Below are positions 9,136 to 23,862 of a DNA stretch of 24,000 nucleotides, piece after piece. How positions within the stretch are numbered: the stretch's first letter is position 1; each line of letters starts with the position of its first letter. Both the position numbers and the translations under genes were made by a program. Under the pieces are notes generated by a model. The model was not told where the DNA came from, searched no databases, and saw only the letters and a list, made by a program, of their open reading frames with translations. Source of the DNA: Desulfobotulus sp. (GTDB lineage: Bacteria; Desulfobacterota; Desulfobacteria; Desulfobacterales; ASO4-4); the NCBI RefSeq assembly GCF_034006065.1, contig NZ_JAVETM010000001.1:293147-317146 (forward strand). The letters are read 5' to 3'.

Positions 9136-9152
9136 TCATTGAAAAAGAGTTG

Positions 9153-9184
9153 AGGGCCATGGGATGCGCCCCTCCCATGGCCCT
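9153..9184 (+). terminator. Hairpin after the MCP gene (probable terminator)
   Basis: AGGGCCATGGGA-tgcgcccc-TCCCATGGCCCT is a 12-bp stem starting 18 nt after the stop. It is followed by a pyrimidine-rich tract with short T runs, not a clean U-tract. Confidence 0.5.
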
Positions 9185-9390
9185 TCTCCCCCTTTTCCCT
9201 TTCCCTTTTCTCCCCAATGCCCTCCGGATTCAGAAATCGTTTCAACAGTAAACACGTGTTACGTGAAAAAACATTTCTATGGCAAAATCCATTTTTTTTA
9301 CACTGCTGAGGAAAAACCCAAGACAATTCAAGTTTTTTATATAAACAAATCAATAATTTATTTTTAAAGAAAAAATTTTTTAAAAAACCC

Positions 9391-9420
9391 TTGACATGAA
9401 AAGTTCATCGGGTGTACCTT
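9391..9420 (+). promoter_or_regulatory. Candidate promoter for module 1 (TTGACA with an A/T-rich UP-like tract)
   Basis: TTGACA at 9391-9396 follows about 60 nt of nearly pure A/T (9330-9388). The best -10 is weak (TACCTT, 9415-9420, 18-nt spacer). It would give a leader of roughly 215 nt containing the aptamer. Confidence 0.35.
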
Positions 9421-9504
9421 GCCTTCCATACAAAACACTGTTTACACAGCAAAGCGGCGACAACGCGGAGACACAGATTTCCGCGACGCATACACCCCGT
9501 GATC

Positions 9505-9598
9505 CGCCTATGTACAAAGCCAAACTCCGGGTAACCGGAGGACGGAAAGCCTACGGGTCCGCAAGATTGTCTTCCGGATGGCCGGGTTACCAAAGGCG
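9505..9598 (+). promoter_or_regulatory. GEMM-I (c-di-GMP-I class) riboswitch aptamer, single copy
   Basis: GCCAAAC-TCCGG-GTAA-CCGGA-GGACGGAAAGCC-TACGG-[GTCCG..CGGAT hairpin]-GGCCGGGTTACC. This has the same block order as the V. cholerae Vc2 aptamer as I recall it (GGCAAACC / GNRA-capped hairpin / GGGACGCAAAGCC / second hairpin / GGGGUUACC). The flanks CGCCT (9505-9509) and AGGCG (9594-9598) can close an outer helix. It sits about 40 nt before the SD AGGAGG and ATG 9641. Confidence 0.75.
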
Positions 9599-9640
9599 AA
9601 CTGCTCTCCAAAACCCTATTTTCACCAGGAGGAAGTTCGT

Positions 9641-10450
9641 ATGAAACGCAATTTCGGCAAAAAACTCATCATCGGCGCGGCCCTCTGCTGCCTTCCCTTC
9701 TCCGCCATGGCTCTGGAAGCTCTGGATGACAGCGCCCTCGGTGGCGTCACCGGTCAGGCCGGTGTGAGCATTGCTCTGGACGATGTGGTGATCTACATGA
9801 AGAGCATTGCAGATGTGACCTACATTGATACGGATGGTTTTGGAGGCGTTGATCGTGCTGGTATCATGATTGAGCACCAGACCGGTGGAGAAAAACTCAT
9901 CACTCTGGGCGCCATTGTGACCGATGATGTTTACGGTATCGATAAACTCAATGCCACATTCAACACCGACAATATCGGTATCCTCTCAAAAGCCGCCATC
10001 AATTCCAAAATGAATGAAATGGCAGCAGCTGCACAGCTTGCCGCCGGAGCTATTGACCAAGCCACATACGATGGCATAGCCGCTGCTGTGGATCCCAATG
10101 CAGTAAATTTTGATCCCACCAACGGATCTACCAGCAACTTTACCAATGGTATCTCCCCCCTGACCATCGATATCGGTGAGGCCGTTGCCCTTACCCAGGG
10201 CTGGACCTACAATACCAATGATACCATCCGAGGTGTAAAAGGCACCCATGTTGCCGGTGTCACAATTGGCCTGCCCACCGTGGAAATCAATACCTACTAC
10301 AACACTGTAGGCGAGCAGAAAGCAATCAAGCTTGTGGAAGTTGGTGATCATGTAGTGAATAAAGGCCACAATGAATTTATCACCATCAGAAAAACCGGTA
10401 ACGCCACCATGGCCATCCTCGGCGGCCGTCTGGAAATCGCTCCCCACTGA
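9641..10450 (+). CDS. Secreted protein, TGQAG-motif family paralog 1 (269 aa); candidate major subunit or cargo
   Basis: AGGAGG lies 8 nt upstream. Signal peptide MKRNFGKKLIIGAALCCLPFSAMA is followed by LEALDDSALGGVTGQAGVSIALDD. The protein is Thr/Asn/Gly/Ala-rich with no Cys after the signal peptide. Its N- and C-terminal segments resemble those of the proteins at 10556 and 18551. Confidence 0.85.
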   Translation: MKRNFGKKLIIGAALCCLPFSAMALEALDDSALGGVTGQAGVSIALDDVVIYMKSIADVTYIDTDGFGGVDRAGIMIEHQTGGEKLITLGAIVTDDVYGIDKLNATFNTDNIGILSKAAINSKMNEMAAAAQLAAGAIDQATYDGIAAAVDPNAVNFDPTNGSTSNFTNGISPLTIDIGEAVALTQGWTYNTNDTIRGVKGTHVAGVTIGLPTVEINTYYNTVGEQKAIKLVEVGDHVVNKGHNEFITIRKTGNATMAILGGRLEIAPH

Positions 10451-10489
10451 TGCAAATCCGGCTTAACCTCCAAGCCTGAATGCCAACGA

Positions 10490-10520
10490 AGCCCCCTCTC
10501 CTGACCGGGGAGGGGGCTTT
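10490..10520 (+). terminator. Strong hairpin with a weak U-tract after the first gene (partial terminator or attenuator)
   Basis: AGCCCCCTCTCC-tgacc-GGGGAGGGGGCT is a 12-bp stem (one G.U pair) followed only by TTT. It lies 40 nt after the stop at 10450 and 36 nt before the next ATG. Confidence 0.5.
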
Positions 10521-10555
10521 GCAACAAAAAAGCCTCGCCGGGGATCGCGACGACC

Positions 10556-11575
10556 ATGAAAATCCTTTGCCTGTTTTTTATCTGCCTCACGTGGCTCAGC
10601 CTCTGCGCCGCGCATCGCAGCGAAGCACTCCAGGCTATGGCGGATACGGATCTGGCCGCATGCACAGGACAGGCGGGCATTTCCATGGCCATTGCGGATC
10701 TGGTGGTCTATCATCATCAGGAAAACATCGCCTTTATCAGCAACCGCAAAATCGATGAAAATACCACTACCCAAACCCCGCTCACCCTCAGCAATACCCA
10801 AAGCCTTCTTACTCTGAATGCGGGCAGAACCGACATCAACGGCAATGGCAAAATTGATCCCATCACCTTGGACATCGGCATGCTTTCCGATCTGGAACGG
10901 CTCTGGAAGGAGCCCAACTGGCTGCCGGAAGATCAGTGGGAAATAATAGATGCCTTGCCCGCCGGTGTACTGGATCGCCCTGTAATCGCCCTTCGCGCTC
11001 CGGACTGGGACAGAAACCTTGAAATCCGCAACAATGGCATTTCCTTGAATGATGTGAATCTCGGTTCTTTCTCCCTTCAGGGCAGTAAGACCCAGGGGTG
11101 GGAGCTTTTTCTTTCCGCAGGCCAGATCATGAAAGTGACTGCCCCTGATGATCCTGATGATCCCAATATCCGCAAAGCGGGTATGGATTTTGAATTCGCC
11201 TTCCAAAAACACATTGAAGCCTTCACCTACAGCCCTTCCGAAAGCCAGACCCTTTCCTTTGACAATCTCTATTTTGCCAAAGACCTGACCTTTTCCGAGA
11301 CCAATGCTTCAGACATCACCGCCTCGGGTTTCTTCCGCCTGGGCAACATGCGGGAGGGCAAACCCCTCTCCATCGATATGGGCGTAACCACCGAAGGCAG
11401 AAGCCAAGCGACCCCTGTCTTAAGGCTGGACCTGAAAGATGCCAGCGGCTCCTTTGCCGTAGCCGGTATCCGGGACATCCAGGGAGCGGAAACCCGCAAC
11501 TTCGGCCCTGTCATTGCCGAAGGAATTCAGATTCATCATATGCGTCTGGAATTCCCCGGTCGGGGGACCCCATGA
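10556..11575 (+). CDS. Secreted protein, TGQAG-motif family paralog 2 (339 aa)
   Basis: Signal peptide MKILCLFFICLTWLSLCAA is followed by ...ALQAMADTDLAACTGQAGISMAIADLVVY. The motif occupies residues 28-39, the same register as in paralogs 1 and 4. There is no obvious SD sequence. Confidence 0.75.
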   Translation: MKILCLFFICLTWLSLCAAHRSEALQAMADTDLAACTGQAGISMAIADLVVYHHQENIAFISNRKIDENTTTQTPLTLSNTQSLLTLNAGRTDINGNGKIDPITLDIGMLSDLERLWKEPNWLPEDQWEIIDALPAGVLDRPVIALRAPDWDRNLEIRNNGISLNDVNLGSFSLQGSKTQGWELFLSAGQIMKVTAPDDPDDPNIRKAGMDFEFAFQKHIEAFTYSPSESQTLSFDNLYFAKDLTFSETNASDITASGFFRLGNMREGKPLSIDMGVTTEGRSQATPVLRLDLKDASGSFAVAGIRDIQGAETRNFGPVIAEGIQIHHMRLEFPGRGTP

Positions 11576-12573
11576 TCTCTGGTCTCACCCCGGAAAGAAG
11601 ACTTTGGCGAAAAAAGGCCCCCTCCCCCAAGGTCCCAGGGACTTTTTTCTGGGCCTTGTTTCTCATGCTTTCCCTGCCGGGTCTCAGCCTGGCCCAAGGG
11701 AATGGGCCTTCGGGTATTTTCGGCTTCTGTGATGGTCTGTTCAAAGAAGAGCAGAAAATCTTTTCCCTGGAAAAAGCCCCCCCCTTTCAAAGCAAAACGC
11801 CACAAAGTCCTTCGGCCATTTCGTCTCTGCCTGCTTCAGAAGAAAAGTCCCATACCTTCGCCCTCACCCAGAGCGAAAACCCGGTCTCTTCTTCCCCTTC
11901 TCCTGATCTTCTTCAGGCCAGCGCCCCCTTACAGGCCCTCTCCGACGGCGAGCTTCAGAACATCACCGCAGGCTCCATTGTGAATTTCACCATGGACGCA
12001 AGCCAGAATCTCGCCCGGATGGATCTGGATATGTACCTTGAAACGCACATGGAAATTGAAAAATTCCGTGCGGGCTATCACAACTACAATCCTGAGACCA
12101 GTCTGGGATGGGATCAGAGCTGGGATAAGGTGCGCTTCTATGGCGGGACTCTGGATGAAGAAAAGAATCCTTCAGATTTTTTCAAAGCCTATGGCCTGAC
12201 CCTTGTGGTGGAATATGAGGGTACAGAGAACAGCCGCAAGATTGCCCGTATTCTCCTGGGTTCCCCCCAGGTTTCGGGTAAAATCGATGCGCAGTTCAAC
12301 CACTTCTCCGGTGTCATCGATCAAGCGGTCAATGCCCATCTGAATGAATCCCAAGACTTAAACCCCTACCGCGTAAATCTTGGGCAGCAGACCCTTACTT
12401 TCAGCCAGGCCAATCAGGGACTTTTCCTCGGCCTGACCTTAAGCGGCGATCGCCCGGGCTTTGGCGTATTTGCGGGAAAACCCCTGGATGGCACAGGCGG
12501 TATTCTGGAAGCAGGCCGCTCAGACTGGTGGACCCAACCGGCGGGAAGCCTCTCCAAAGATTCAGCCCCCTGA
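11572..12573 (+). CDS. Secreted protein with an S/P-rich linker and an internal GG-leader-like motif (TGQAG-family paralog 3, divergent)
   Basis: ATGA start/stop overlap with the upstream gene. Hydrophobic signal ...FFWALFLMLSLPGLSLAQG, then a Ser/Pro-rich stretch of about 80 aa, then LQALSDGELQNITAGSIVNFTMD (residues 123-134). The start codon is uncertain. Confidence 0.65.
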   Translation: MISGLTPERRLWRKKAPSPKVPGTFFWALFLMLSLPGLSLAQGNGPSGIFGFCDGLFKEEQKIFSLEKAPPFQSKTPQSPSAISSLPASEEKSHTFALTQSENPVSSSPSPDLLQASAPLQALSDGELQNITAGSIVNFTMDASQNLARMDLDMYLETHMEIEKFRAGYHNYNPETSLGWDQSWDKVRFYGGTLDEEKNPSDFFKAYGLTLVVEYEGTENSRKIARILLGSPQVSGKIDAQFNHFSGVIDQAVNAHLNESQDLNPYRVNLGQQTLTFSQANQGLFLGLTLSGDRPGFGVFAGKPLDGTGGILEAGRSDWWTQPAGSLSKDSAP

Positions 12574-12684: not shown

Positions 12685-13440
12685 ATGCACATCCTCGCCG
12701 CCTTTGTCATATTCCTTGCCTTTGCCAATGGTTTCCATCCCATCTCCGAAGAAAAGGAAAGTCACGCCGTTTTTGTGGTGGATCCGGATCAACGCATTGT
12801 GCTGCGTACCCCTGTGGTAACGGATGAGATCATCCAGTTTCGCCACCTGGTACGCCAGAACTTTGATTATTCCTGCGGGTCTGCGGCCCTGGCCACCCTG
12901 CTCAATGCTGCCATGGGCGAAAATCTCACGGAACGTCAGGTCATCCATGGTCTCATGGAATACGGAGACAAGGAGCAGATTGCCGCACGCAGAGCCTTTT
13001 CCCTTCTGGACATGAAACGCTTCGTCAATGTGCTGGGCTATGACGGCGCAGGCTATAAGGCAAAAATGGAAAACCTGCTCGATCCCCAGTACTGGCCTGC
13101 CATTGTTCCCATCAAAATCTTTGATTACCGTCATTTCGTCGTTTTTCGCGGAGCCTACGGCGGCCATGTCTTCATCGCCGACCCCTGGCGGGGAAACAGC
13201 AGCTACACGGAGGAACAGTTTGCGTCCATGTGGTATGACAATGTCATGTTTCTTGTTTCCAACGGCGAAAAAAAACATCCCAACCTCCTGCGCCTGCGCA
13301 CGGAAGACCTTCGCTATATCGACGAAGACACGGCCCGGTATTTTGTCTTTGACCAGGAAAAACCCTTTAACACCCCAAGGGACACCCAGGTGCCTGTCAA
13401 AGACGGCGTTCCCGCAGGGGGCTATTTTTATAAACCCTAG
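12685..13440 (+). CDS. Periplasmic stand-alone C39-like cysteine peptidase
   Basis: Signal peptide MHILAAFVIFLAFANG. C39 signature RQNFDYSCGSAALATLLN (Q58, C64; Cys codon 12874-12876), then ...DYRHFVVFRG..GHVFIADP (H150, D166). The Q-6-C and H-16-D spacings match what I recall for bacteriocin-processing C39 domains. Confidence 0.8.
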   Translation: MHILAAFVIFLAFANGFHPISEEKESHAVFVVDPDQRIVLRTPVVTDEIIQFRHLVRQNFDYSCGSAALATLLNAAMGENLTERQVIHGLMEYGDKEQIAARRAFSLLDMKRFVNVLGYDGAGYKAKMENLLDPQYWPAIVPIKIFDYRHFVVFRGAYGGHVFIADPWRGNSSYTEEQFASMWYDNVMFLVSNGEKKHPNLLRLRTEDLRYIDEDTARYFVFDQEKPFNTPRDTQVPVKDGVPAGGYFYKP

Positions 13441-13459
13441 AGTCTGAGGTCCGGAGATC

Positions 13460-14521
13460 ATGGTTTTTCGTCTTTTTCTTCTCATTCTTTTCTTCTTCTG
13501 CACAACAGCCCCCTCATGGGCGGAGAACGATCCGGAAATCCGGCTCCTTGAGGAGCGTCTCCAGGAGCTGGAGGCCTCCCTCAAACGCATGCAGGAAGAA
13601 AACGAGGCCCGCAGAACCCTTCAGAGTACAGCCGAAGAAAAGGCGGCTCAGGAAGAGGAAATCCTTTCCGCCGCGGGCAGGGATTACACCCTGATGCGGC
13701 CCGGACGCATGGGATTTGAATACAATTTCCGCTACTCCTACTACAGTTATGACCAGCTTGTGGAAGCCGGAAAAATCGAGCACAAGAGCAATCACAACAT
13801 TGAAAACAGCATGGTGGTGGAATATCCCCTGAAGCCCAATCTCACCCTGAGCGCAGATTTTCCCTTTGTCTTTAAAAGCGACAACAAATCCTCAGATGGC
13901 TCTTCCCGTCAGGTGTCCGATATCGGGGACTTTGTGCTGGGATTTCAGTATCAGCCCCTGAAATCCGGCGGAAAAATACCGACCACCATCCTTTCCCTCC
14001 GCGCCAGCCTGCCCGTGGGCCGCAGCCCCTATGACATCGATCCGGACAAGGAGATGGCCACCAGCTCCGGCACATACAGCCTCACCGCCGGGGCCAACTT
14101 CAGCAAGGTTTTTGATCCCATCATTGCCTATGGTGGACTGAGCTACAGCTATTATCTGCCGGAAAGCACCCGCTACCACGCCAAAGGCGTATCCTCACCG
14201 GAATATGTCTCTGAAGTGAACCGGGGAGAGCAGTTCGGATTCAGCGCCGGGTTTGGTTATGCCCTTTCTTACAGGCTCAACATCAACCTCAGTTATCAGT
14301 ACAGCCTCAGTATGCGCTCCAAATACACCTGGACCACCGATGAGACCCCGGAAAAATGGGAGACCCAGAGCCCCACATCCGCATCCTCAGTTTTCAGTAT
14401 CGGCACGGGCTGGCGCATCAGCAGCAAACGCACCATGAATGTGCGCCTTGGCATCGGCCTTACCAACAATGATCCGGACTTTACCCTGGCCATACGCCTG
14501 CCCTTTGAACTGGTCTTCTGA
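13460..14521 (+). CDS. Outer-membrane beta-barrel protein with an N-terminal coiled-coil segment
   Basis: Signal peptide MVFRLFLLILFFFCTTAPSWA. A charged heptad-like helix of about 55 aa follows (EIRLLEERLQELEASLKRMQEENEARR...EEKAAQEEE), then about 270 aa of alternating amphipathic strands ending ...AIRLPFELVF with a terminal Phe. Confidence 0.75.
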   Translation: MVFRLFLLILFFFCTTAPSWAENDPEIRLLEERLQELEASLKRMQEENEARRTLQSTAEEKAAQEEEILSAAGRDYTLMRPGRMGFEYNFRYSYYSYDQLVEAGKIEHKSNHNIENSMVVEYPLKPNLTLSADFPFVFKSDNKSSDGSSRQVSDIGDFVLGFQYQPLKSGGKIPTTILSLRASLPVGRSPYDIDPDKEMATSSGTYSLTAGANFSKVFDPIIAYGGLSYSYYLPESTRYHAKGVSSPEYVSEVNRGEQFGFSAGFGYALSYRLNINLSYQYSLSMRSKYTWTTDETPEKWETQSPTSASSVFSIGTGWRISSKRTMNVRLGIGLTNNDPDFTLAIRLPFELVF

Positions 14522-14576: not shown

Positions 14577-16412
14577 ATGGAAACGTGTTTTGTGAAAAAC
14601 CATCCGCGCTGCCGCCCACTCACGAAACGGTCCGGGTTCGATTCAGCCTGCCTCTGGATCGTTGCCCTTGTCCTTTTTTGCCTGGTGCTTCGGCCTTTTT
14701 CCGCCGAAGCCAACTTCAATGAGCAGGTGGCCATCAGCACCAAGGCCATTTCCCTTGCCAATACCGTGACCGCAGACCCGCCGGGACTCATGTCCGTTCA
14801 TTACAACCCCGCAGGTCTCAGTCTTCTGGATGAGGGCAAGGTGTTCAGCAATGGTTTCACCCTGGCTCACATTGTCCGTACGGGACGCTTTCAGGAAGAT
14901 CCGAACTTCCCTGGTTTCATGGACACCTGGGGCCCGGGTAAACCTTACAATCCCGACTTTCCCAATGACCCTGACAGCGACCATGGCGGTCCGGACCCTC
15001 TCCGGGGGACAGAAGGCACAACCTCCGGCAACATTCTTTATGTGCCCTTTTATGGTCCCATCAGCCTCCCCGCCATCCCCGCACCCAACTTAGGTATTTC
15101 CCACAGAAGCCCAGGCTCCCGCTGGACCTTTGCCTATGCCAATTATGCGGCCTACGGCGGAGGGATTGAGCATAAGGATGCGGGCGACCCTTTGCGTTTC
15201 GGATGTAAGTCTTTGTATCTCCAGCACCTTATCTATGCAGCCCCTTCGGTGAGTTACCAGATTTCGGACACCCTTTCCGTGGGCGCCTCCATTGGCATGG
15301 GCCAAACCTCCATGGGCATTGCCATGGACCAGCGTTCTCCCAATGAGCTGGTGGCCCTCACCCGCGTCATCGGTGACGCCACAAGGGATCTTCACATTCC
15401 CGTGGTCTCAGACATGACCTTTCCCGCTCCCTGGCTGGGAGGCGGCCTGGGGCCCTATGAGCATGTGGCGAGCTTCAGGCTGGACATGAGAGACGATTAT
15501 TCCCCCAGTTTCAACCTAGGCCTCCTCTGGCAACCCCATCACCGCTTTTCCTTTGGCCTCGTTTACCAGAGCGAGACCCAGTCTGAAATGACAGGTAACT
15601 ATATTTTTCACTATTCGGAACAATTCCAGCGTCATATTGACTGGAACGGATCCACCTCCTACACCATGCAGGGAGCGGGTATTCTTGGCCTTCCCATCAA
15701 AGGGCTTCCCTTTCAGGCAGGGACGGTCACCACCACCCAGAGGTTTCCCCAGAGGGTGCAGGCGGGAATCATGGTCAAACCCTTTTCCCGCATCAAATGG
15801 CTCTTTGATGTCAACTGGACCAACTGGTCTGTCATCAAGGAAGACCGCCTTCAGTTTGATCAGCGCATCCATCTTCTTCAGCTTGTTAAACTTCTCGGTT
15901 ACACGGGCGGAGAAAGTACGCTTCTAGTGGAGCGCAATCTCAAAGACACCTGGAGCTTCAGCACAGGTCTTGAGTTCATGGTATCCGAGGCCTTAAGTCT
16001 GCGCCTTGGGTATGAAAAGCGGCCCACGTCCTTAAACTATGACCTCTTTGACGCCCTGTATTTTCTTCCGGAAAACAATTTTTACGGCACAGGCGCGGAA
16101 TTACGCTTAAAAAATGGGCTTACCATCGATCTCGGCATGGGGATTCTCATGGCAGATAAGATCAAGGTGGACAACAACCGTTCCACCAACATGAATTCCA
16201 CGGATTTCACGAAGATCGTATACAACCCCTATGCGGGTCTCAACTATGAGCAGGACACCACCATCTACCTTGCCTCCTTTACCATCACCATGCCCCTTGA
16301 GCTGCAGATGGAGCTTTTGGAGCAGAAAAAGGAGATGGCCTTAAAAGCCCTTTCCAAACTCAAAAAACTCTGGCCCTTTGGATCCAGAAAAGAAAGCACA
16401 AAAGCCCAGTGA
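14577..16412 (+). CDS. FadL/OmpP1/TodX-family outer-membrane channel, unusually long (611 aa) with a C-terminal helical tail
   Basis: The N-terminal region after the signal (LWIVALVLFCLVLRPFSAEA) reads ...AISLANTVTADPPGLMSVHYNPAGLSLL, a typical FadL-family opening. Later FadL-like blocks are present (LRLGYEKRPTS..., FYGTGAELRL). After the last strand comes the tail ELQMELLEQKKEMALKALSKLKKLWPF.... The start is uncertain: ATG 14577 has no clear SD, and GTG 14592 is an alternative. Confidence 0.7.
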   Translation: METCFVKNHPRCRPLTKRSGFDSACLWIVALVLFCLVLRPFSAEANFNEQVAISTKAISLANTVTADPPGLMSVHYNPAGLSLLDEGKVFSNGFTLAHIVRTGRFQEDPNFPGFMDTWGPGKPYNPDFPNDPDSDHGGPDPLRGTEGTTSGNILYVPFYGPISLPAIPAPNLGISHRSPGSRWTFAYANYAAYGGGIEHKDAGDPLRFGCKSLYLQHLIYAAPSVSYQISDTLSVGASIGMGQTSMGIAMDQRSPNELVALTRVIGDATRDLHIPVVSDMTFPAPWLGGGLGPYEHVASFRLDMRDDYSPSFNLGLLWQPHHRFSFGLVYQSETQSEMTGNYIFHYSEQFQRHIDWNGSTSYTMQGAGILGLPIKGLPFQAGTVTTTQRFPQRVQAGIMVKPFSRIKWLFDVNWTNWSVIKEDRLQFDQRIHLLQLVKLLGYTGGESTLLVERNLKDTWSFSTGLEFMVSEALSLRLGYEKRPTSLNYDLFDALYFLPENNFYGTGAELRLKNGLTIDLGMGILMADKIKVDNNRSTNMNSTDFTKIVYNPYAGLNYEQDTTIYLASFTITMPLELQMELLEQKKEMALKALSKLKKLWPFGSRKESTKAQ

Positions 16413-16444: not shown

Positions 16445-17935
16445 ATGCCTTCTTTCCTCGTACAAGTCTTCTTTGTTTTCCTTGCTCTTGTTCTTCCCGT
16501 CGGCGGTCTTTGTCAGCCCAGCCTGCGCGTTACCGAAGAATTTTTCGGAATGCCCGAATCCGGTATCCAGATTTTCGGCCTCACGGCGGATGACCAGCTC
16601 AGCCATGTGGCCTATGCGGTGCAGGATGAAAAGGGTATGTTCGTTCGCATGGACAAAGAGGAGGGACCTCACTTTGAGTCCATCCGCAAAGGCACCCCGC
16701 TTTTCGGCCCCCAGGGCCATATCATGGTCTACGTAGGCTTCCGACAGGCCAAAAGCCATGTCTGGGTGAATGGGAAGGAAAAGGGGATTTACGATGGCGC
16801 AGACAGTTTTACCTTCAGCCCAACGGGTCAGCATCTGGCCTATCGCGTTGAAGTTAAAGGCCAGGGCCAGGCCGTGGTTTCCGGAGACAAACAAGGACCT
16901 TTTTTCCGGATGGTGGATCCGGAAAGCCTTGTCATGGCCCAGGACGGAGGCCTTGCCTATGTGGGGATGGACCCGGACAGAGGGGCGGTGCTCATGGTCA
17001 ATGGCAGGGAGGCCGGGATTTTTGAGGGGGTGCGGGAGCTACGCTTTTCCCCAGAAGGCCATTTTGCCTGTGCTGTGAAAAAAGATGGCCTGTGGCACCT
17101 TTTTCTGGAAAACACCATGGAAAAAGAAGGGTATGAGGGCATTCAGTACATTGGATTTTCCCCGGACAGTGAGAAAATCGCCCTTGTCATCCTCCGTAAG
17201 GGCAAACTCAGTGTGCGCATGGGAAAGGACACCCACAGATCCTGGGATACGGTGGGGCCTCCCCTCTTTTCTCCGGACAGCCAACGCCTTGCCTATCCCG
17301 CCAAACAGGGTGAGCGCTGGGCCATGGTGGTGGATGGAAAAAGGGGGGATCGCCACGATCTTCTGGGCCCGCCCCTCTTTTCTCCGGACAGTCAGCACAT
17401 CGCCTGGATGGCTGTGGAAAAAGATCACTCTTTTTATGTGGTGAACCACAAAAAACAGCCTGCCTATGAGACTGTGGACGGCTTTGCCTTTCATCCGCAA
17501 AAAGGCTTTGCCTACAGGGCCAGGCAAAAGGAAAAATGGCATCTTGTCACCGAGCTTGGGGAAGGCCAGGCCCATGATGGCGTCACGCCCCCCCTCTTCC
17601 ATGAAAACGGCCGTCTTCTCTTTGGCATTGCCGATGATCATCAGCAGCGGCTGGTGGTGGATGGGGTTCCCGGCCCTCCGGCGGATCAGATCAGCCCTGC
17701 GGTTTACAGTCCAGGAGGCCAGCATGTGGGATGCGCTGTGATTCTCGATAAAAAATGGTACCTGGATATGGATGGCCAGCGCACTCCCATTGAAAATATC
17801 ACCGCCTTTCTCAATCAGGCGCCGGTGCGGTTTATTGATGAAAACACCATGCAGGGGCTGGCTTACCAGCTTCCTGGGCCCCGTTTTCTGAAAATCTCCG
17901 CAACCCTTGAAAATTTCAAGGAAACCATTGAGTGA
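16445..17935 (+). CDS. Secreted beta-propeller-like repeat protein (PD40/TolB-like FSPDG repeats)
   Basis: GGAG lies 5 nt upstream. Signal peptide MPSFLVQVFFVFLALVLPVGGLC. There are about 10 repeats of roughly 40 aa carrying F/YSP(D/E/T/G)(G/S)xxhAY-type motifs (FSPTGQHLAY, FSPEGHFAC, FSPDSEKIAL, FSPDSQRLAY, FSPDSQHIAW, YSPGGQHVGC). Confidence 0.7.
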   Translation: MPSFLVQVFFVFLALVLPVGGLCQPSLRVTEEFFGMPESGIQIFGLTADDQLSHVAYAVQDEKGMFVRMDKEEGPHFESIRKGTPLFGPQGHIMVYVGFRQAKSHVWVNGKEKGIYDGADSFTFSPTGQHLAYRVEVKGQGQAVVSGDKQGPFFRMVDPESLVMAQDGGLAYVGMDPDRGAVLMVNGREAGIFEGVRELRFSPEGHFACAVKKDGLWHLFLENTMEKEGYEGIQYIGFSPDSEKIALVILRKGKLSVRMGKDTHRSWDTVGPPLFSPDSQRLAYPAKQGERWAMVVDGKRGDRHDLLGPPLFSPDSQHIAWMAVEKDHSFYVVNHKKQPAYETVDGFAFHPQKGFAYRARQKEKWHLVTELGEGQAHDGVTPPLFHENGRLLFGIADDHQQRLVVDGVPGPPADQISPAVYSPGGQHVGCAVILDKKWYLDMDGQRTPIENITAFLNQAPVRFIDENTMQGLAYQLPGPRFLKISATLENFKETIE

Positions 17936-18207: not shown

Positions 18208-18218
18208 TCAATCCTCAA

Positions 18219-18290
18219 GCCAAACCGGAGGTAACTCCGGGACGGAAAGCCACGGATCCAGAACTTTACATCTGGACAGCCGGGTTGCAC
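18219..18290 (+). promoter_or_regulatory. GEMM-I-like riboswitch aptamer, tandem unit R2
   Basis: GCCAAAC-CGGAG-GTAA-CTCCG-GGACGGAAAGCC-ACGG-[ATCCAGA-actttaca-TCTGGAC]-AGCCGGGTTGCA. Both stems differ from R1 by compensatory changes. Confidence 0.75.
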
Positions 18291-18294
18291 CAAA

Positions 18295-18446: not shown

Positions 18447-18456
18447 TCCTTCTCAA

Positions 18457-18527
18457 GCCAAACCGGGGGTAACTCCGGGACGGAAAGCCACGGGTCCAGA
18501 ACTTTACATCTGGACAGCCGGGTTGCC
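18457..18527 (+). promoter_or_regulatory. GEMM-I-like riboswitch aptamer, tandem unit R5 (copy of R2)
   Basis: GCCAAAC-CGGGG-GTAA-CTCCG-GGACGGAAAGCC-ACGG-[GTCCAGA-actttaca-TCTGGAC]-AGCCGGGTTGCC. It differs from R2 at two stem positions. Its end lies 10 nt before the SD AAAGGAG and 23 nt before ATG 18551. Confidence 0.75.
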
Positions 18528-18550
18528 TGTAGTACAGAAAGGAGTCTTCC

Positions 18551-19021
18551 ATGAGCAAGCTTCGTTTCCTCCTGGTTTTCTGCACCATGACGGCAATCAC
18601 CCTGTCCACGGCCTCTGCCGGACTGATTGCCATGACAGAAACCGAAATGCATCATGTGACCGCCCAGGCTGGTGTTTTCATCGATGTGGACAAGGTCCGC
18701 TTTGATTCCGAAATGAAAACCCTTAGTTACGGCAGCGATGCCACCGGATGGATCAGCCTCAATGACGTGAGGATTTCCACCTTCGTCAACAGCGGCAAAC
18801 CCATTGAGGTGGGCATGGTTACCGAATACAACCCCTACGAGGGCCGTACCATGGAAATGATGAAAATCGACTTTACGGATGTGGAAATCCGCATGGACGA
18901 ACTTCTCATCGGCTCCATCCGCGTGGGTCCCCGTCCGGGGGAAGGGCCAAGCTTCGGGAGCATCGGCATCACCGGGTTTCACGCAAACATGTCAGGGAAC
19001 GTGCGCATATGGACCCGCTGA
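18551..19021 (+). CDS. Small secreted protein, TGQAG-motif family paralog 4 (156 aa)
   Basis: AAAGGAG lies 6-7 nt upstream. Signal peptide MSKLRFLLVFCTMTAITLSTASA is followed by GLIAMTETEMHHVTAQAGVFIDVD, with the motif at residues 28-39. Its C-terminus (...GFHANMSGNVRIWTR) resembles that of paralog 1 (...GNATMAILGGRLEIAPH). Confidence 0.85.
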   Translation: MSKLRFLLVFCTMTAITLSTASAGLIAMTETEMHHVTAQAGVFIDVDKVRFDSEMKTLSYGSDATGWISLNDVRISTFVNSGKPIEVGMVTEYNPYEGRTMEMMKIDFTDVEIRMDELLIGSIRVGPRPGEGPSFGSIGITGFHANMSGNVRIWTR

Positions 19022-19197
19022 GGTTCTGTGCCTGGACGCACCCCTTTACCTCCTCCTTTTTCCCCATGTCAGAAGTGCTGGAAATACCAAAGTACCGCAT
19101 CCTTTCCATGCCATTCCAACCCTTCTCCCTTTCCCGATCTGACCCATAACCCCTTTTTAGGCGGCACCCCATGCCCCGGAAACCGCAGGATTGTCCC

Positions 19198-20061
19198 ATG
19201 CAACCCGCTTTTATCTTGATTTTGTTGCTTTTTCCATTTTGGTTTTCCCCTGTTTCGGCCCAGGCCGCGCCCTTCCTTGCGCCCGGTCAGATCACCGGAA
19301 CAGCCGGGCCCGCGGATCCGCCGGAACAAGGGCTTGCAAAGGGCATGGTCAGCCTTTCCCTCTTTACCCAGAAAAATGAATCGCCCCTGGGAAGGGAACG
19401 TTTTGCATGGATAGATCCGGAGGATGAAAACCAGGAAGAACGCCACAGAGCACGAAAATGGCGCTCCATCTATGACATGCAGGGTCTGAGCCTGAGGGGT
19501 GCCTATGCCTTTTCTGCAGTCTCCGCCTATTTCCTGGTTGGGATGGCGCAAACGGACATCACCTTTTCCTACAGGGATGAAACCAGAAAATATCAGTCTT
19601 CCAGCGCTTTTTATGACGAAAGCACCCGCTTCCGGGATGAAAGCCATCTTTTTTTCGGTGGTGGTCTCACCGCAGCCATGGCCCGCTGGCAACCCAATCC
19701 CGATACACGCATCGCCCTGGATGCGGATCTTTCTTATCGCTACCACGCCTTAAACCCCGAAGACCAGAACAGTCGAAGCTGGAGTTCTGTACTCCACGAA
19801 ATCCAAGGAGCCATGACCTTAGGCCTCATGATGGAAAAATGGACACCCTTCACAGGCCTTCGCATCAGCCACATCAGCGGCCAAATGACCTATGAGGACA
19901 AAAAAGAGGGGATCAGGGTCAGCAAAAGCATTGAGGCGGGAAAGGATATTGGCTATACCTTCGGCATTCGCTACCGCGCCCTGCCCTGGCTGGATCTGAC
20001 CCTTGCCTCCCGCTACGGGGATGAAAGCGGATATCACCTGGAATGCGCCTTTGTTTTCTGA
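19198..20061 (+). CDS. Small outer-membrane beta-barrel protein (about 287 aa)
   Basis: AGGA lies 7 nt before ATG 19198; the alternative ATG 19171 has a poorer SD. Signal peptide MQPAFILILLLFPFWFSPVSAQA, alternating-strand pattern, and a C-terminus of ...GYHLECAFVF with terminal Phe. Confidence 0.7.
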   Translation: MQPAFILILLLFPFWFSPVSAQAAPFLAPGQITGTAGPADPPEQGLAKGMVSLSLFTQKNESPLGRERFAWIDPEDENQEERHRARKWRSIYDMQGLSLRGAYAFSAVSAYFLVGMAQTDITFSYRDETRKYQSSSAFYDESTRFRDESHLFFGGGLTAAMARWQPNPDTRIALDADLSYRYHALNPEDQNSRSWSSVLHEIQGAMTLGLMMEKWTPFTGLRISHISGQMTYEDKKEGIRVSKSIEAGKDIGYTFGIRYRALPWLDLTLASRYGDESGYHLECAFVF

Positions 20062-20086: not shown

Positions 20087-22237
20087 ATGCAAACTCTTTC
20101 CGGCAAAATACGGTATTTATCCGGATTTCTGCTGATTTTCTGTTTCTGCACCGGCGCCTTTGCCCAGGCAAAGATCAGCGGAGTGCTGCGCTGGCCAGGC
20201 AGCAGCATACGATCGGTCACAGGCAACAGCGACCATCTCATTCACACCCATGGCAATCTTCTACGGATATTTCAGAGAACGGATGACACGCTTCTTGCCG
20301 CCGTCCCCATCGCCCTTCAGGAAGGCCTGCGCGGCCTTGCCCATGCGCCGGATCAGAATCGTATTTACCTGGCCTGTGGCACGGATGGTCTGCGCATCCT
20401 CAACCTTGAAAATCCCACACACCCTGTGGTGACAGCCTACGACATCAATCCGCAAAATGCCGGAAAAAAAGACGCAAGTGGCCGGTATATCGCCCATACC
20501 TTTGCCCCCATGGGCCTCTTTTACCTGGAAAAACGCCTCTATGTGGCGGATTTCATGTATGGCCTCCGGGTTTTTGATGTCAGCATTCCCGAAGAGCCGA
20601 AGGAAATCGCAGCATATCGCCAGGGCACTGGGGATGCATCCGGCGGTTATCTCCAGGTTTTTGTGCACCGGGAAGCAGGACGGACCCTGATCTCGGTTCT
20701 GGATAAATACCACGGCCTCCACCTTTTCGATGCAGCGGACCAGCAGGCCGGAGACGCTGAAAAAAAATGGACGCCCGCAGCTAGCTTTGATATGCGTTCC
20801 AAAACCTATTATGGTCAGATTTCCCTGGTCACTGGCCTCTTTGCAGAAGGTCCCAGGGTTTTTGTAACAGACGAGGAAAACGGGCTGACCATCCTCCACC
20901 TTTTCAATGAATCCCAGCAGAGGGACTCTTTAAAAATTGTCAAGGAGGGCCAGTGTAAAACCCCTGGAAAGGCCATGGACCTTGTTGTGGATACCCATCT
21001 TCAGCGGGCTTTCATCGCAGACACGGAAAAAGGCCTTTCCGTTGTGGGTCTTGAATCCCTCTTTGACAATGATCCCGCAACCCGTGTGCAGGACAGCGAC
21101 TTCAAAGGCGCAGAAAGCCGCGCGGATGATCTCGGGGGCAGCCACAGCCTCTGGAAAGATCCCATGGAAAATGCCCTCTACCTTGCTTCCTATGCCAAAG
21201 ATCTCAGTCGTATCCGTCTCGGGTCGCCGCAGATAGAAAAAACCTTTCCGCCAGCTCTGGATTTTCGCCAGATCCAACGGCAAGGATCCACCCTCATCCT
21301 TTCGGACCACGGTCATTTAAGGGGGTTTCGCGTCATGGACATCACCCATATGCTTGAGCCAGATTCCGATGCAGCCTATTTTCCAAGGCAACTGGCGGAA
21401 AAAGGAACCCAGGCCCCGGCCCAGGCTCTCCGGGTTTCCGGAAACCGCCTTTTCACCGCAGAAGGGCCAAAGGGCCTGGGCGTCTATGATCTCACGGATC
21501 CGGCTGCGCCCCTTTTTCTTGCCCAGATTACAGCCCAGGAAATTCCGGGGCTTGACGATGTGCGGGATGTGGTCATCCGCGATGCCCTCGCTTTCTGCCT
21601 CATTCAGGGAAAGGGGATTGCGGTTCTTGATCTGGCCAATCCCGCTCAGCCTGTGCAGAAAAACCTGATTTCCGAGTACGACCAGGCCGTGGGACTTTTT
21701 CTGGATGCCAGCACCCTCTGGATCGCAGACAGACAAAAGGGACTTGTCGCCCTTTCCGTTACCCATCCTGAAACGCCCGAAAAAATCCGTAGCCTGGCCC
21801 TCACAGCCCCCCAAGCTCTCTGGGCGGATGAAACGCGGGTTCTTGTGGCCGAAGGACCCCATGGGCTTTTTGTTTATGAAAAAACAAGCGGCCTTTCTTC
21901 CCAGGTGGCCCTGAAGGACGGGGCCGAAGCTGCCCATGTTTTTGGCCTGAATCATTTTGCCTTTGTGTCCTGTGGGCAAAAGGGCGTGCAGATGATCGAC
22001 CTCACAGCCTCCCAAGGTCCTGAGACCGTAGCCTCGCTGGACAGCTATGGAAAAACCCTTGCTGGCTTAGGGCTCAACCAGGATCTGTACATGGCGGAAG
22101 CCACAGGTGGGCTTGCGGTTTTGCGCTTTGTACTCGGAGACGAAGCCTCCCCAGCCCCCCTGCCCAGCATCCGGACCAGTTCATCTTCCTGCTTTCTGGA
22201 CAGCCTGATTCATGGGAAAAAGGGGATCCGGCCATGA
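20087..22237 (+). CDS. LVIVD-repeat beta-propeller protein, secreted (716 aa)
   Basis: AGGAG lies about 10 nt upstream of ATG 20087. Signal peptide MQTLSGKIRYLSGFLLIFCFCTGAFAQA. LVIVD-type units recur: LYVADFMYGLRVFDVSIPEEPKEI, AFIADTEKGLSVVGL, LFTAEGPKGLGVYDLTDPAAP, AFCLIQGKGIAVLDLANPAQP, LWIADRQKGLVALSVTHPETPEKI, VLVAEGPHGLFVYE, AFVSCGQKGVQMIDLT, LYMAEATGGLAVLRF. Confidence 0.8.
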   Translation: MQTLSGKIRYLSGFLLIFCFCTGAFAQAKISGVLRWPGSSIRSVTGNSDHLIHTHGNLLRIFQRTDDTLLAAVPIALQEGLRGLAHAPDQNRIYLACGTDGLRILNLENPTHPVVTAYDINPQNAGKKDASGRYIAHTFAPMGLFYLEKRLYVADFMYGLRVFDVSIPEEPKEIAAYRQGTGDASGGYLQVFVHREAGRTLISVLDKYHGLHLFDAADQQAGDAEKKWTPAASFDMRSKTYYGQISLVTGLFAEGPRVFVTDEENGLTILHLFNESQQRDSLKIVKEGQCKTPGKAMDLVVDTHLQRAFIADTEKGLSVVGLESLFDNDPATRVQDSDFKGAESRADDLGGSHSLWKDPMENALYLASYAKDLSRIRLGSPQIEKTFPPALDFRQIQRQGSTLILSDHGHLRGFRVMDITHMLEPDSDAAYFPRQLAEKGTQAPAQALRVSGNRLFTAEGPKGLGVYDLTDPAAPLFLAQITAQEIPGLDDVRDVVIRDALAFCLIQGKGIAVLDLANPAQPVQKNLISEYDQAVGLFLDASTLWIADRQKGLVALSVTHPETPEKIRSLALTAPQALWADETRVLVAEGPHGLFVYEKTSGLSSQVALKDGAEAAHVFGLNHFAFVSCGQKGVQMIDLTASQGPETVASLDSYGKTLAGLGLNQDLYMAEATGGLAVLRFVLGDEASPAPLPSIRTSSSSCFLDSLIHGKKGIRP

Positions 22238-23862
22238 AAAAACGCTACCTTCTTCCAGGGATTCTGGGACTTGCCCTCATTGCCCTTTTCGCCATAATCC
22301 CCTTTCTCAAGGCAGAAAAAGAAACCTCTCCCTTGCTGCTGACTGCGGATGCCCAGTATCTTTCTCCTCCCCAGCCTAAGGTTTTTCTGATCGAACCAGT
22401 CCCAGCACCCGCGCCTCTGCCCACGGAGATCCTGCTTTCCCATGAAGAAAACCAAAGGCTCGCCGCACAGGAAGCCCTGGATTCCCAGCAGGGGGAAAGT
22501 CTTCCCACGGAAGCCCTTTTTTCTGCCCCTGAAAACCTTGACAGCAAACCAGAGCCATCATTGCCCCCTGTTTCCCATGCTGCGGATGCAGCCGGGGTCC
22601 CCAAAGACAGGAACACAGCAACCAACCTTTTACGCGGCATTGATATTCAGACGGAATCCAGAGATATTCGGGTGCAGGTTCTTGCGGAAAAGAGTTTTCA
22701 CCGGATCCGGGCCTTTACCCTCCAAAACCCCGCACGCCTGGTCCTGGATATCTGGGATCTGCAATCGCCCTTTACCACGGAACAACGTCAGACAGCCAGC
22801 GCTCCCATCCTTCAGATCCGACACTTTGCCCACCCAGACCGGGTTCGCCTGGTCCTTGATATGGAAGAAGACTGGTCCGGCCATTACTCCACCCAAAGCC
22901 TGGAAAAGGGTCTTGAAATTCGTCTGGGCAAGGATCCAGCCCAGGATTCTCCGGAAACCCTCCCCCAAGAAAGGGAAACCTCAGTCTCCGTTCTTCCGCC
23001 CCAAAGCCCTGTCCCTCTCCCAGGGGAAATCCAAAGCAAAATGATTTCTGCGCCCACAGCCCCTTCCGAAGAAGCAGACAGGATTTTCAGCGAAAAAAAA
23101 AGCACGCGTGAGCCTCTTTTTGACGAAAAAATCGAAGAGTCCAGCCTGGAAGAAAAGGATACCGCAGAAAGGGAAAATGAATCCCAAGATTTTTCCGAAC
23201 CTGAAAGTCCCCAGATTTCAGAAAAAGAACGGGAAAGGGATCAGATCCAGAAACGCCTCGCCCTTCTTCTGGCTCAGGAATTCTGGCTGGAACCCAGGGA
23301 TCTTCTCATGCGCATCCAGGCCCTGGGATCCGAGGGGAAAACCGCCTTACCCATTATCCTGGAAGTTCTTGAGAAAAAAAACCATCCCTACGCCCAATAC
23401 CGGTTCACCCAGATTGCGGCCATGGAGGCCCTCGCAGCCATTCAACCGGAGCCCCAGGAGGTGGAAGCCCTGCTCGCTTCCTATCTTTCCGAGCGTCATT
23501 TCATGCTGCGTAAAACAGCGGTCAGGACCCTGGGGCTGATCGGGGCCCAAGGTGATCTCGCCTACCAGGCCCTGTGTCAGGCCGCGAAATCAGATCCTTC
23601 GGCTCCCGTCCGGGAAGCGGCAAGCACAGCACTGGGACGGACGGGCGGAGCTCTCCGGGAAGAAGGTTTTCAGGTATTGCTGGAAAGATGCAAAGACAAA
23701 AGCAGCCATGTACGCCTTGCCGCAGTACGGGTACTCTCCGGGGTTCGGGAAAAACGCCCCGAAGCCTCCCAGGCTCTGAATCAGGCCAGAGAAGATCTCA
23801 ATGAAAAGGTACGCCACCTCGCGGTTCTGGCGCTCGAAGAGGACAGGGTTTCCCGACAGTGA
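22234..23862 (+). CDS. Membrane-anchored AMIN-domain protein with an acidic linker and C-terminal HEAT-like repeats
   Basis: ATGA overlap with the upstream stop. N-terminal anchor LLPGILGLALIALFAIIPFL. AMIN-like block (IRVQVLAEKSFHRIRAFTLQNPARLVLDIWDL...ILQIRHFAHPDRVRLVLDM...LEIRLG), then an E/S/P-rich linker, then repeated ...VR.AA..ALG... helices (VREAASTALGRTG, VRLAAVRVLSGV, VRHLAVLALEE). Confidence 0.75.
   Translation: MKKRYLLPGILGLALIALFAIIPFLKAEKETSPLLLTADAQYLSPPQPKVFLIEPVPAPAPLPTEILLSHEENQRLAAQEALDSQQGESLPTEALFSAPENLDSKPEPSLPPVSHAADAAGVPKDRNTATNLLRGIDIQTESRDIRVQVLAEKSFHRIRAFTLQNPARLVLDIWDLQSPFTTEQRQTASAPILQIRHFAHPDRVRLVLDMEEDWSGHYSTQSLEKGLEIRLGKDPAQDSPETLPQERETSVSVLPPQSPVPLPGEIQSKMISAPTAPSEEADRIFSEKKSTREPLFDEKIEESSLEEKDTAERENESQDFSEPESPQISEKERERDQIQKRLALLLAQEFWLEPRDLLMRIQALGSEGKTALPIILEVLEKKNHPYAQYRFTQIAAMEALAAIQPEPQEVEALLASYLSERHFMLRKTAVRTLGLIGAQGDLAYQALCQAAKSDPSAPVREAASTALGRTGGALREEGFQVLLERCKDKSSHVRLAAVRVLSGVREKRPEASQALNQAREDLNEKVRHLAVLALEEDRVSRQ

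Follow-up and report, generated by a model that had tools for sequence, protein, structure and literature searches.

A Fil/Fap-type gene cluster of Desulfobotulus with a stand-alone C39 peptidase, a FapF/FilC-like barrel and candidate leader-bearing cargo

Two described systems stand closest to the genes that are the subject of this work. The first is the functional amyloid (Fap) system of Pseudomonas, in which FapD is periplasmic and secretion depends on the Cys of its active site (PMC5557850), and in which R-h-x-x-h-E has been reported as the trimerisation motif of the FapF coiled coil (PMC6173795). The second is the Fil system of Acinetobacter (filABCDEF; NCBIfam NF050077-NF050081 and NF033645), already named a putative pilus system by NCBI, where FilA, identified by Edman degradation, is the deduced subunit of the Fil fimbriae on Acinetobacter sp. 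Tol 5 (PMC3498257; PMC11784438). Hidden Markov models of FapD and FapF match many proteins outside fap operons, which points to larger families (Dueholm et al., PMC3792158), and among the openly licensed papers and bioRxiv preprints that we searched, none explains the mechanism or assembly of Fil, or links Fil to Fap. Here we describe a run of genes from Desulfobotulus sp. (NCBI RefSeq assembly GCF_034006065.1, contig NZ_JAVETM010000001.1, positions 293,147 to 317,146), a stretch of 24,000 nucleotides hereafter called the window, in which the gene of a stand-alone C39 cysteine peptidase (12685-13440) is followed by that of a FapF/FilC-like outer-membrane protein (13460-14521). A preliminary description had taken this pair for a Fap-like export module recruited for a different substrate family. 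Our analysis supports that view and refines it: the evidence supports placing the locus in the FilABCD-type "putative pilus" branch, a sister of Fap, and the putative cargo belongs to the FilA/DUF6160 family.

The peptidase matches the Pfam family Peptidase_C39 (PF03412) with E 4e-15 and 56.2 bits against a gathering score of 22, and it has no ABC-transporter part; it is therefore a stand-alone enzyme, as had been proposed, unlike the C39 domains of ABC exporters, to one of which, that of PCAT1 (PDB 4ry2/7n87), it is related with E 8.5e-6. The complete set of Q58, C64, H150 and D166 was found as the preliminary description had it, and all four residues are invariant in the 121 aligned homologs (121/121); in total, 1671 homologs match at E<=1e-5. 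Regarding the described systems, the protein shows 44% identity with FilB of A. baumannii (E 3e-54) and scores 207.6 bits with the NCBIfam model of FilB (E 2.3e-61, cut-off 475) and 117.6 bits with that of C39_FapD (E 4.6e-34, cut-off 330). The signal peptide that had been ascribed to it stands in part: the hydrophobic N-terminus (MHILAAFVIFLAFANG), with its conserved pattern MH[IV]L.AF.I, is devoid of a basic (K/R) n-region, which is atypical of a signal peptide. Judged from this N-terminus, export of the peptidase is likely, and either a cleaved signal peptide or a membrane (signal) anchor would be compatible with it.

The barrel gene begins 19 nt after the peptidase gene, on the same + strand. 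The N-terminus of its product, MVFRLFLLILFFFCTTAPSWA followed by EN, is by its appearance a Sec signal peptide (..APSWA/EN, the slash standing for the presumed cut). In an AlphaFold2 (AF2) model built on 64 homologs, with a predicted local distance difference test (pLDDT) score of 87.9, it is followed by two helices (25-54 and 58-72) and by a barrel (83-352) that leads to the C-terminus ...PFELVF, with its terminal Phe. Across the 64 homologs, heptads are marked by hydrophobic residues at 30/34/37/41/44, a conserved Asn48 and Leu54. The architecture described earlier (signal peptide, coiled coil, barrel of about 270 aa, terminal Phe) thus holds, except that the coiled coil proper spans about 25-30 aa (about 27-54) and not about 55; what comes after it is a separate and very conserved helix, EEEK....ILSAAGR, which is a candidate plug. 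The stretch R33-L-Q-E-L-E38 fits the R-h-x-x-h-E motif, with the limit that R33 is not conserved in the family, and by analogy with FapF a trimer is probably held together by the N-terminal coiled coil. Strand 1 lies about 10 residues after the second helix, and hence the window barrel has no long disordered linker. Among the 149 homologs found at E<=1e-5, many (P0006, P0015, P0016, P0025, P0029, P0040 and others, Desulfosarcina widdelii being one of the hosts) have a length of 470-570 aa and begin with a peptidoglycan-binding SPOR domain (PF05036), which suggests that some of these versions are tethered to the cell wall.

That the barrel is a relative of FapF is seen by profile, sequence and fold alike. 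The NCBIfam models of FilC and FapF give 178.5 bits (E 2.4e-52, cut-off 630) and 93.4 bits (E 1.3e-26, equivalog cut-off 700), respectively, and identity with FilC of A. baumannii is 30% (E 3e-41). In a sequence search of the PDB, the FapF crystal structures (5o65) are the only solid matches (E 8e-19), the next ones being noise with E of about 0.4. In a Foldseek search of the PDB with the model, the top 18 matches are all FapF chains, with E from 4.5e-23 to 2e-19, template-modelling (TM) scores of 0.80-0.89 normalised to FapF (0.84-0.89 for the best, at E 4.5e-23) and 23% identity; the COG4313 channel 4rl8 comes next, ten orders of magnitude behind (E 1e-13, TM 0.7), and autotransporter barrels after it. 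With Pfam, the protein matches Phenol_MetA_deg (PF13557) at 27.8 bits, which is a superfamily label and no contradiction, because a bona fide FapF of Aeromonas, used as a control, receives the same label at 29.2 bits. A MetA-type barrel that lacks a coiled coil had been named as the outcome that would speak against a Fap-like pair; this outcome was not observed, FapF being far ahead of 4rl8 and the heptads being conserved.

Homology to both FapD and FapF was therefore found, as the idea of a Fap-type export pair implied, and the scores place the pair nearer to FilB and FilC of Acinetobacter than to FapD and FapF (207.6 versus 117.6 bits and 178.5 versus 93.4 bits). The product of the next gene follows the same pattern, with 301.7 bits for NCBIfam pilus_FilD (cut-off 970) and 29% identity to A. 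baumannii FilD (E 4e-51); this FadL-like, FilD-like third gene is part of the conserved core. Because all Fil and Fap scores lie under the curated NCBIfam cut-offs, the window proteins are to be regarded as relatives and not as equivalogs. As a reference we used the fil locus of A. baumannii (L081; NZ_CP104448.1, 1797573-1814148), whose FilA-F pass the NCBIfam cut-offs and served as positive controls. Two peculiarities of this reference may be mentioned: the record is filed as a plasmid, although at 4.09 Mb it is chromosome-sized, and its filD is broken by an in-frame stop, the open reading frame (ORF) 9920-11086 resuming in the same frame to about 11590.

The Fap side was compared through a control fap operon of Aeromonas, which gave matches for FapB, FapC, FapD, FapE and FapF, with the last three in the order D-E-F and with no FadL gene. 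Similarly, the Aeromonas, Cupriavidus and Polymorphobacter loci have a peptidase, one intervening gene and a longer barrel, with no FadL-like gene detected. In agreement with the earlier statement that FapB/FapC-like subunits are missing, the FapB, FapC and FapE models found no match among the 39 proteins scanned (ten window proteins, then paralog 3 again with 27 A3-type homologs, for which see below), whereas the control operon gave them; the FapA model gave no match in the window or in the control operon, and no relative of FapA was detected. On the Fil side, no window protein matches the NCBIfam models of FilE or FilF (E<=0.1), nor did BLASTP or phmmer find a relation, while both models recognise the Acinetobacter proteins; the 496-aa repeat protein encoded further downstream likewise has no similarity to FilE or FilF. 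The Fil relatives and their order, set against the architecture of the control fap operon, are the reasons for assigning the window to the Fil-type branch.

The pair belongs to a run of genes on the + strand that extends, in the ORF listing, from 9641 to at least 20061 of the window. The features of the locus are the following:

9509..9594, + strand: c-di-GMP-I (cyclic di-GMP) riboswitch aptamer (Rfam RF01051, 58.7 bits, gathering score 35, E 2.5e-9)
9641..10450, + strand: cargo paralog 1, 269 aa (DUF6160 E 1.2e-11; NCBIfam pilus_FilA E 2e-8)
10556..11575, + strand: cargo paralog 2, 339 aa (DUF6160 E 8.7e-7, over residues 11-47 only; leader by motif scan)
11572..12573, + strand: cargo paralog 3, 333 aa, of the A3 type (leader by motif scan)
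12685..13440, + strand: stand-alone C39 cysteine peptidase, FilB/FapD-like, 251 aa (Pfam Peptidase_C39; NCBIfam FilB/FapD)
13460..14521, + strand: FapF/FilC-like outer-membrane protein, 353 aa (NCBIfam; PDB sequence and fold matches)
14577..16412, + strand: FadL/TodX-family outer-membrane barrel, FilD-like (Pfam Toluene_X E 7.5e-34; NCBIfam pilus_FilD E 7.6e-90)
16445..17935, + strand: secreted repeat protein, 496 aa, with TolB/PD40-like blades (weak PD40 and TmcD_fam matches)
18209..18292, + strand: c-di-GMP-I aptamer, the first of a tandem pair (Rfam RF01051, 60.7 bits, gathering score 35)
18448..18531, + strand: c-di-GMP-I-GGC aptamer, the second of the tandem pair (Rfam RF03167, 62.5 bits, gathering score 59)
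18551..19021, + strand: cargo paralog 4, 156 aa (DUF6160 E 3.9e-10; signal peptide and leader)
19171..20061, + strand: small outer-membrane beta-barrel protein (weak OMP_b-brl match; synteny in Desulfoluna-type loci)
20087..22237, + strand: secreted LVIVD-repeat (beta-propeller) protein (Pfam LVIVD E 5e-11; synteny)
22234..23862, + strand: AMIN-domain and HEAT-repeat protein (Pfam AMIN E 2.5e-9, HEAT_2 E 9e-19)

Some of these boundaries call for comment. The FadL-like gene may start at 14439 or, more likely, at the ATG at 14577; the ORF of the LVIVD protein opens at 20003, with the ATG at 20087 as its likely start; and the ATG of cargo 1 at 9641 is preceded by AGGAGG. The gene at 22234..23862 would be the end of a second transcription unit, and its membership in the system is uncertain. 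Promoter and terminator scans of the locus gave counts no better than those of shuffled sequence, and for this reason the limits of the operons are drawn solely from gene spacing and from where the riboswitches lie. Elsewhere in the window, a second FadL/TodX-family gene (53-868, Toluene_X E 3e-34) runs off the 5' end, and between it and the locus are genes for an AI-2E transporter, a glycine-betaine ABC system, BacA/UppP and a Cache-domain chemoreceptor.

The arrangement is conserved well beyond this genome. When one genome was scanned for each species, 80 related loci were obtained, nearly all of them Desulfobacterota-type (Desulfoluna, Desulfosarcina, Desulfatitalea, Smithella, Geomonas), with one labelled Thermodesulfovibrionales. 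The barrel gene is followed by a FadL gene in 79 of the 80 loci, and in 63 of the 80 the peptidase gene lies directly upstream of the barrel gene, giving the order peptidase-barrel-FadL that is also found in A. baumannii. Many loci also have cargo paralogs on the upstream side and, after the FadL gene, the gene of the 496-aa repeat protein; the full order A1-A2-A3-peptidase-barrel-FadL-repeat protein-OMP-LVIVD, where OMP is the small outer-membrane protein, is present in eight of them (L001-L005, L008, L009, L027), and the small OMP gene is syntenic in L001-L006, L008, L009 and L027.

The neighbouring "GG-motif paralogs", which the preliminary description had put forward as cargo candidates, are real: they are DUF6160-type proteins with a common leader, LxDxxLxxVTGQAGVS. 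Three of the four (the products of 9641, 10556 and 18551) are DUF6160 members and have this leader directly after the Sec signal peptide; the leaders of all four window paralogs align without gaps. Cargo 1 has the signal peptide ..SAMA followed by LE and the leader LDDSALGGVTGQAGVS, and scores 33.9 bits with pilus_FilA (cut-off 220); cargo 2 and cargo 4 each have a signal peptide and the leaders MADTDLAACTGQAGIS and MTETEMHHVTAQAGVF, respectively, cargo 4 having been scanned against Pfam only. Cargo 3, for which no Pfam or NCBIfam family match was found, has a signal peptide, a Ser/Pro-rich spacer of about 80 aa and then the leader LQALSDGELQNITAG followed by S, the most canonical double-glycine-like one of the set, its core LSDGELQNITAG (with S after it) being a full match to the LSxxELxxIxGG-type pattern. 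In 27 syntenic A3-type homologs there is no spacer, and the leader, with T-[GA]-x-G-F, stands directly after the signal peptide.

The conservation of this leader is strong. In 99 homologs of the 9641 product, ..A.A and LE, on either side of the signal-peptide cut, are followed by [LM]xDxx[LM]xx[VA]TGQAGVSIA[VL]DD[IV]VIYQ, and Q39, G41, V42, I44 and D47 are invariant in the family. Relative to the bond that follows G-Q, the hydrophobic positions are -4, -7, -12 and -15, which is the spacing of the double-glycine leaders of class II bacteriocins and lantibiotics; in three of the paralogs the last two positions are G-Q, followed by A-G. A profile of the leader alone found 122 cluster representatives among 1.84 billion proteins, the leader starting at residues 19-24 in nearly all of them and the proteins being 55-621 aa long, with one outlier of 3107 aa. 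A. baumannii FilA, itself a DUF6160 member, has ..NAMA followed by MQSMDDAALSAATGQDGI, and its similarity to the window cargo is confined to the N-terminal 31-33 aa (E 3e-4), so that the leader appears as the conserved part and the cargo body as the variable one. Moreover, the leader travels with the peptidase: cargo with the strict motif lies within 8 kb in 33 of the 63 peptidase-bearing loci and in 1 of the 17 peptidase-less ones (Fisher p = 5.8e-4), and this sole peptidase-less locus (L006) is cut at its 5' end. Taken from its sequence, the leader is thus a candidate substrate site for the peptidase.

When the 9641 product was modelled with AF2 (pLDDT 87.2), a helix occupied 30-38, and residues 21-40 have the lowest confidence (61-63 in the leader). 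No significant fold match was found in the PDB (best E 0.03, TM<0.2), and as far as the model and the solved structures go, this protein would not resemble FapC, curli or pilins. Conservation as high as that of the leader is seen in the strand that comes next (VSIAVDDVVIY) and at the C-terminus (LEIAPH). The cargo family ends almost invariantly in ...ILGG.LEIAPH, with a C-terminal His (window 10426-10450), and A. baumannii FilA ends in ...TITISGH (L081 7528-7554); conserved N- and C-terminal strands that flank a variable middle are also what is seen in self-assembling subunits.

Two further sequences that came up with the cargo deserve a mention. A DUF6160 protein of 375 aa (P0263), half of which aligns with the cargo at 50% identity, is listed in EukProt under the eukaryote Chilomastix cuspidata; it most likely reflects bacterial contamination of that transcriptome. 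The FapE of Aeromonas caviae (L083 8599-9246) has PELADGELAHLRGRYVSSHGISYFGIE after its signal peptide, a leader-like stretch that echoes the published absence in vivo of the N-terminal ~70 residues of FapE. Its alignment by hhalign with the A3-type leader (LSDGELQNITA-----GSIVNF) is not significant (E 0.075), and the NCBIfam FapE model matches 0 of the 28 A3-type proteins, so a homology of FapE to A3-type cargo was rejected as evidence.

The cargo genes are also set apart by their 5' leaders. All three riboswitch aptamers of the window score above the Rfam gathering scores: the first lies 46 nt upstream of cargo 1, and the tandem pair ends 20 nt before cargo 4. Rfam models found 19 more aptamers in eight related loci, and an aptamer precedes the first cargo gene, in the equivalent position, in L001, L003, L004, L009 and L027. 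A covariance model built from these (R1), with which the 18209-18292 aptamer reaches 81.7 bits, found a total of 67 aptamers, which are spread over 26 of 81 sequences of the Desulfobacterota type (the window and the 80 loci) and form arrays of up to five; it found none in the Acinetobacter or Fap-type loci. For most of the arrays (26 of 37), an ORF that encodes a signal peptide and the leader begins 15-48 nt beyond the end of the array. Examples of head-to-tail arrays are L027 12631-13028, L053 2777-3138, L054 13031-13378, L006 5672-6067 and L038 8796-9153; arrays of four or five aptamers are unusual in length.

With moderate confidence, we read these genes as a two-step, Sec-dependent outer-membrane export and assembly system of the Fil/Fap class for surface-fibre or matrix proteins, with processing of the leader by the C39 peptidase. 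At high c-di-GMP, the riboswitches in the 5' leaders would switch the cargo genes on, and the four cargo proteins would cross the inner membrane by Sec. Signal peptidase would then expose, at or near the new N-terminus, an amphipathic leader of about 15 residues, [LM]xDxx[LM]xx[VA]T[GA]Q(A)G, which the C39 peptidase, presumably facing the periplasm, may recognise and cut at or next to T-G-Q-A-G. This cut may license export, unmask the conserved beta-strand VSIAVDDVVIY, or both; the FapF-like barrel, gated by the helix that precedes it, would pass the unfolded cargo across the outer membrane, and the FadL-like barrel would be an obligatory partner, be it as an anchor, a second channel or a lipid-facing gate. 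The homologies, the fold, the catalytic residues, the conservation of the leader, the synteny and the riboswitches are all observations on the sequences and models described above. By comparison, the periplasmic location of the peptidase, the cleavage of the leader, trimerisation, the direction of transport and fibre formation are what we infer by analogy with the work on FapD and FapF (PMC5557850) and on the Fil fimbriae of Tol 5 (PMC3498257; PMC11784438).

Several points weigh against this proposal. The peptidase is without a basic n-region, which leaves its topology presumptive. The cleavage of the leader is, for all members, a prediction from sequence, in which the scissile bond is not fixable: the spacing puts the cut after G-Q, while a cut after T-G or A-G would depart from the canonical pattern, and we know of no C39 enzyme with Gln at P1. 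Models of bacteriocin leaders matched none of the cargo proteins at E<=0.1, save one A3-type homolog with the type-2 lantibiotic model (E 1.3e-4). In addition, 30 peptidase-bearing loci have no strict-motif cargo within 8 kb, a count to be read with the fact that many contigs are short and variant motifs exist. Finally, 14 loci (L007 at 7692-10996, L010, L011, L014, L015, L017-L020, L022, L023, L028, L044 and L067) hold the barrel and FadL pair with neither the peptidase nor leader-bearing cargo within 8 kb and with unrelated flanks; they come mostly from Smithella or Syntrophaceae metagenome-assembled genomes, three being labelled only delta proteobacteria. In these, the partners may be encoded elsewhere, or the two barrels may have a protease-independent function.

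The first alternative to leader processing, which we hold to be unlikely, is that the peptidase acts on the machinery, cutting either the barrel protein between its periplasmic helices and its barrel or an accessory protein, and that the N-terminus of the cargo is a barrel-targeting signal or a polymerisation strand. For FapD itself, Rouse et al. could identify no Fap subunit with a canonical C39 site, and they favoured FapE or the linker of FapF, and not the main subunit, as the target (PMC5557850). In the window barrel, an invariant ..ILSAAG73R.. lies just before the barrel and would offer such a site; Gly73, however, is not kept in Acinetobacter FilC (...FTSNERQYSL), so that a cut there would not be family-wide. 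The cargo N-terminus also admits two views. Gln at the presumed P1 of most leaders is atypical for C39, and VSIAVDDVVIY and LEIAPH, by being as conserved as the leader, fit self-assembly signals; on the other hand, the amphipathic helix and small-residue motif of the leader are typical of C39 substrates, the leader co-occurs with the peptidase, and in its A3-type form it is fully canonical.

According to a second alternative, hydrophobic compounds are taken up through the two barrels (COG4313/MetA-type plus FadL/TodX), and the peptidase and the DUF6160 genes are separate from them in function. Several host lineages degrade hydrocarbons or fatty acids. The best Pfam label of the barrel is Phenol_MetA_deg, the next gene is Toluene_X/FadL, 4rl8 represents the second-best fold family, and the barrel and FadL genes stand alone in the 14 mostly Smithella-type loci; moreover, it is on cells grown with triacylglycerol that Tol 5 displays its Fil fimbriae (PMC3498257). 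We nevertheless judge this route improbable. The Pfam label is given to the real Aeromonas FapF too, the lead of FapF over COG4313 in the fold search is accompanied by its being the only solid match by sequence in the PDB, and the conserved periplasmic coiled coil is a feature of FapF. The fixed order of cargo, peptidase, barrel and FadL genes in the 63 loci and in Acinetobacter argues for one system, and control by c-di-GMP points to surface structures and not to catabolism.

The two last alternatives have little to commend them. A genuine Fap amyloid operon, whose subunits have diverged beyond recognition, would account for the matches to the FapD and FapF models, and Fap has been reported once in Deltaproteobacteria (PMC3792158); it is nonetheless very improbable, given that no FapA/B/C/E matches were found among the 39 proteins scanned with NCBIfam, that the window has peptidase-barrel-FadL with nothing between peptidase and barrel while the Aeromonas control has D-E-F and no FadL, that the Fil models score about twice the Fap models, and that the cargo model is without a match to solved fibre or pilin structures. 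That the C39 domain is a non-catalytic C39-like chaperone, like the inactive C39-like domains of some type 1 secretion ABC transporters (mentioned in PMC5557850), is hardly credible for a family in which Cys64, His150, Asp166 and Gln58 are invariant in 121/121 homologs.

A wider and more tentative proposal, to which we give somewhat less than even credence, would be that Fil and Fap are two branches of one widespread and so far unclassified pathway of secretion across the outer membrane. In it, a bacteriocin-like leader placed after the Sec signal peptide would serve as an address, to be removed by a periplasmic C39 peptidase before a trimeric FapF-type barrel takes over; the cargo (DUF6160, A3-type, FilA and perhaps FapE) would be interchangeable, and in Desulfobacterota the wiring to c-di-GMP would be gene by gene, by way of riboswitches that stand singly or in tandem.

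The interest of the locus lies mainly in a concrete substrate candidate for periplasmic C39 proteases and in the control of cargo riboswitch by riboswitch. The substrate of FapD has been an open question since the FapF structure paper of 2017 (PMC5557850), and the Fil-type branch offers a conserved candidate site. The locus also links three subjects that are treated separately in the literature searched, namely the Fap amyloid exporter, the Acinetobacter Fil fimbriae, and the many unannotated DUF6160/C39/"transporter"/FadL clusters of sulfate reducers and syntrophs. The Fil fimbriae include the vaccine candidate FilF, and no assembly mechanism has been described for them in that literature. 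With c-di-GMP riboswitches controlling the genes one by one, a major structure of the surface or the biofilm of these anaerobes is indicated, and the portable leader, together with the three-gene export module, could serve for surface display.

Among the known systems, the COG4313/Phenol_MetA_deg channels (4rl8) belong to a common barrel superfamily with the window protein, and differ from it in their genomic context and in a match far weaker than that of FapF; these channels are not known to have a periplasmic coiled coil. With the bacteriocin ABC exporters, such as PCAT1, the window system shares the peptidase family and its catalytic residues, the spacing of the leader and its predicted helix. 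It differs from them in having a peptidase that is no part of an ABC transporter and is presumably periplasmic, a leader that comes after a Sec signal peptide and has Gln at P1 in most cases, and putative substrates that are proteins of 150-600 aa and not small peptides.

With Fap of Pseudomonas (PDB 5o65), the window has in common a stand-alone C39 peptidase (Sec export being probable in the window) and a barrel, presumably of the 12-strand type, that is preceded by an N-terminal coiled coil and a helix. The locus is not a member of Fap, as it has no FapA/B/C/E and a different gene order, with the peptidase and barrel genes directly adjacent and a FadL-like partner present; furthermore, its barrel is without a long disordered linker, its cargo is not repeat-built, and the FapD and FapF models give about half the score of their Fil counterparts. 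Of Fil it is only a distant member, as shown by the sub-cut-off scores and by FilE and FilF of Acinetobacter, which are without a counterpart in the window. The window has four cargo paralogs, and outside the leader BLAST shows no resemblance of their bodies to FilA. It also has additional conserved genes (the PD40-like repeat protein, the small OMP and the LVIVD protein) and c-di-GMP riboswitches, such riboswitches not having been detected in the Acinetobacter locus, and its host is Desulfobacterota-like, while that of Fil belongs to the Gammaproteobacteria. What the two share is the order of subunit gene(s), C39 peptidase, FapF-like barrel and FadL-like barrel, and a subunit, FilA, that is itself a DUF6160 protein with an equivalent leader after its signal peptide.

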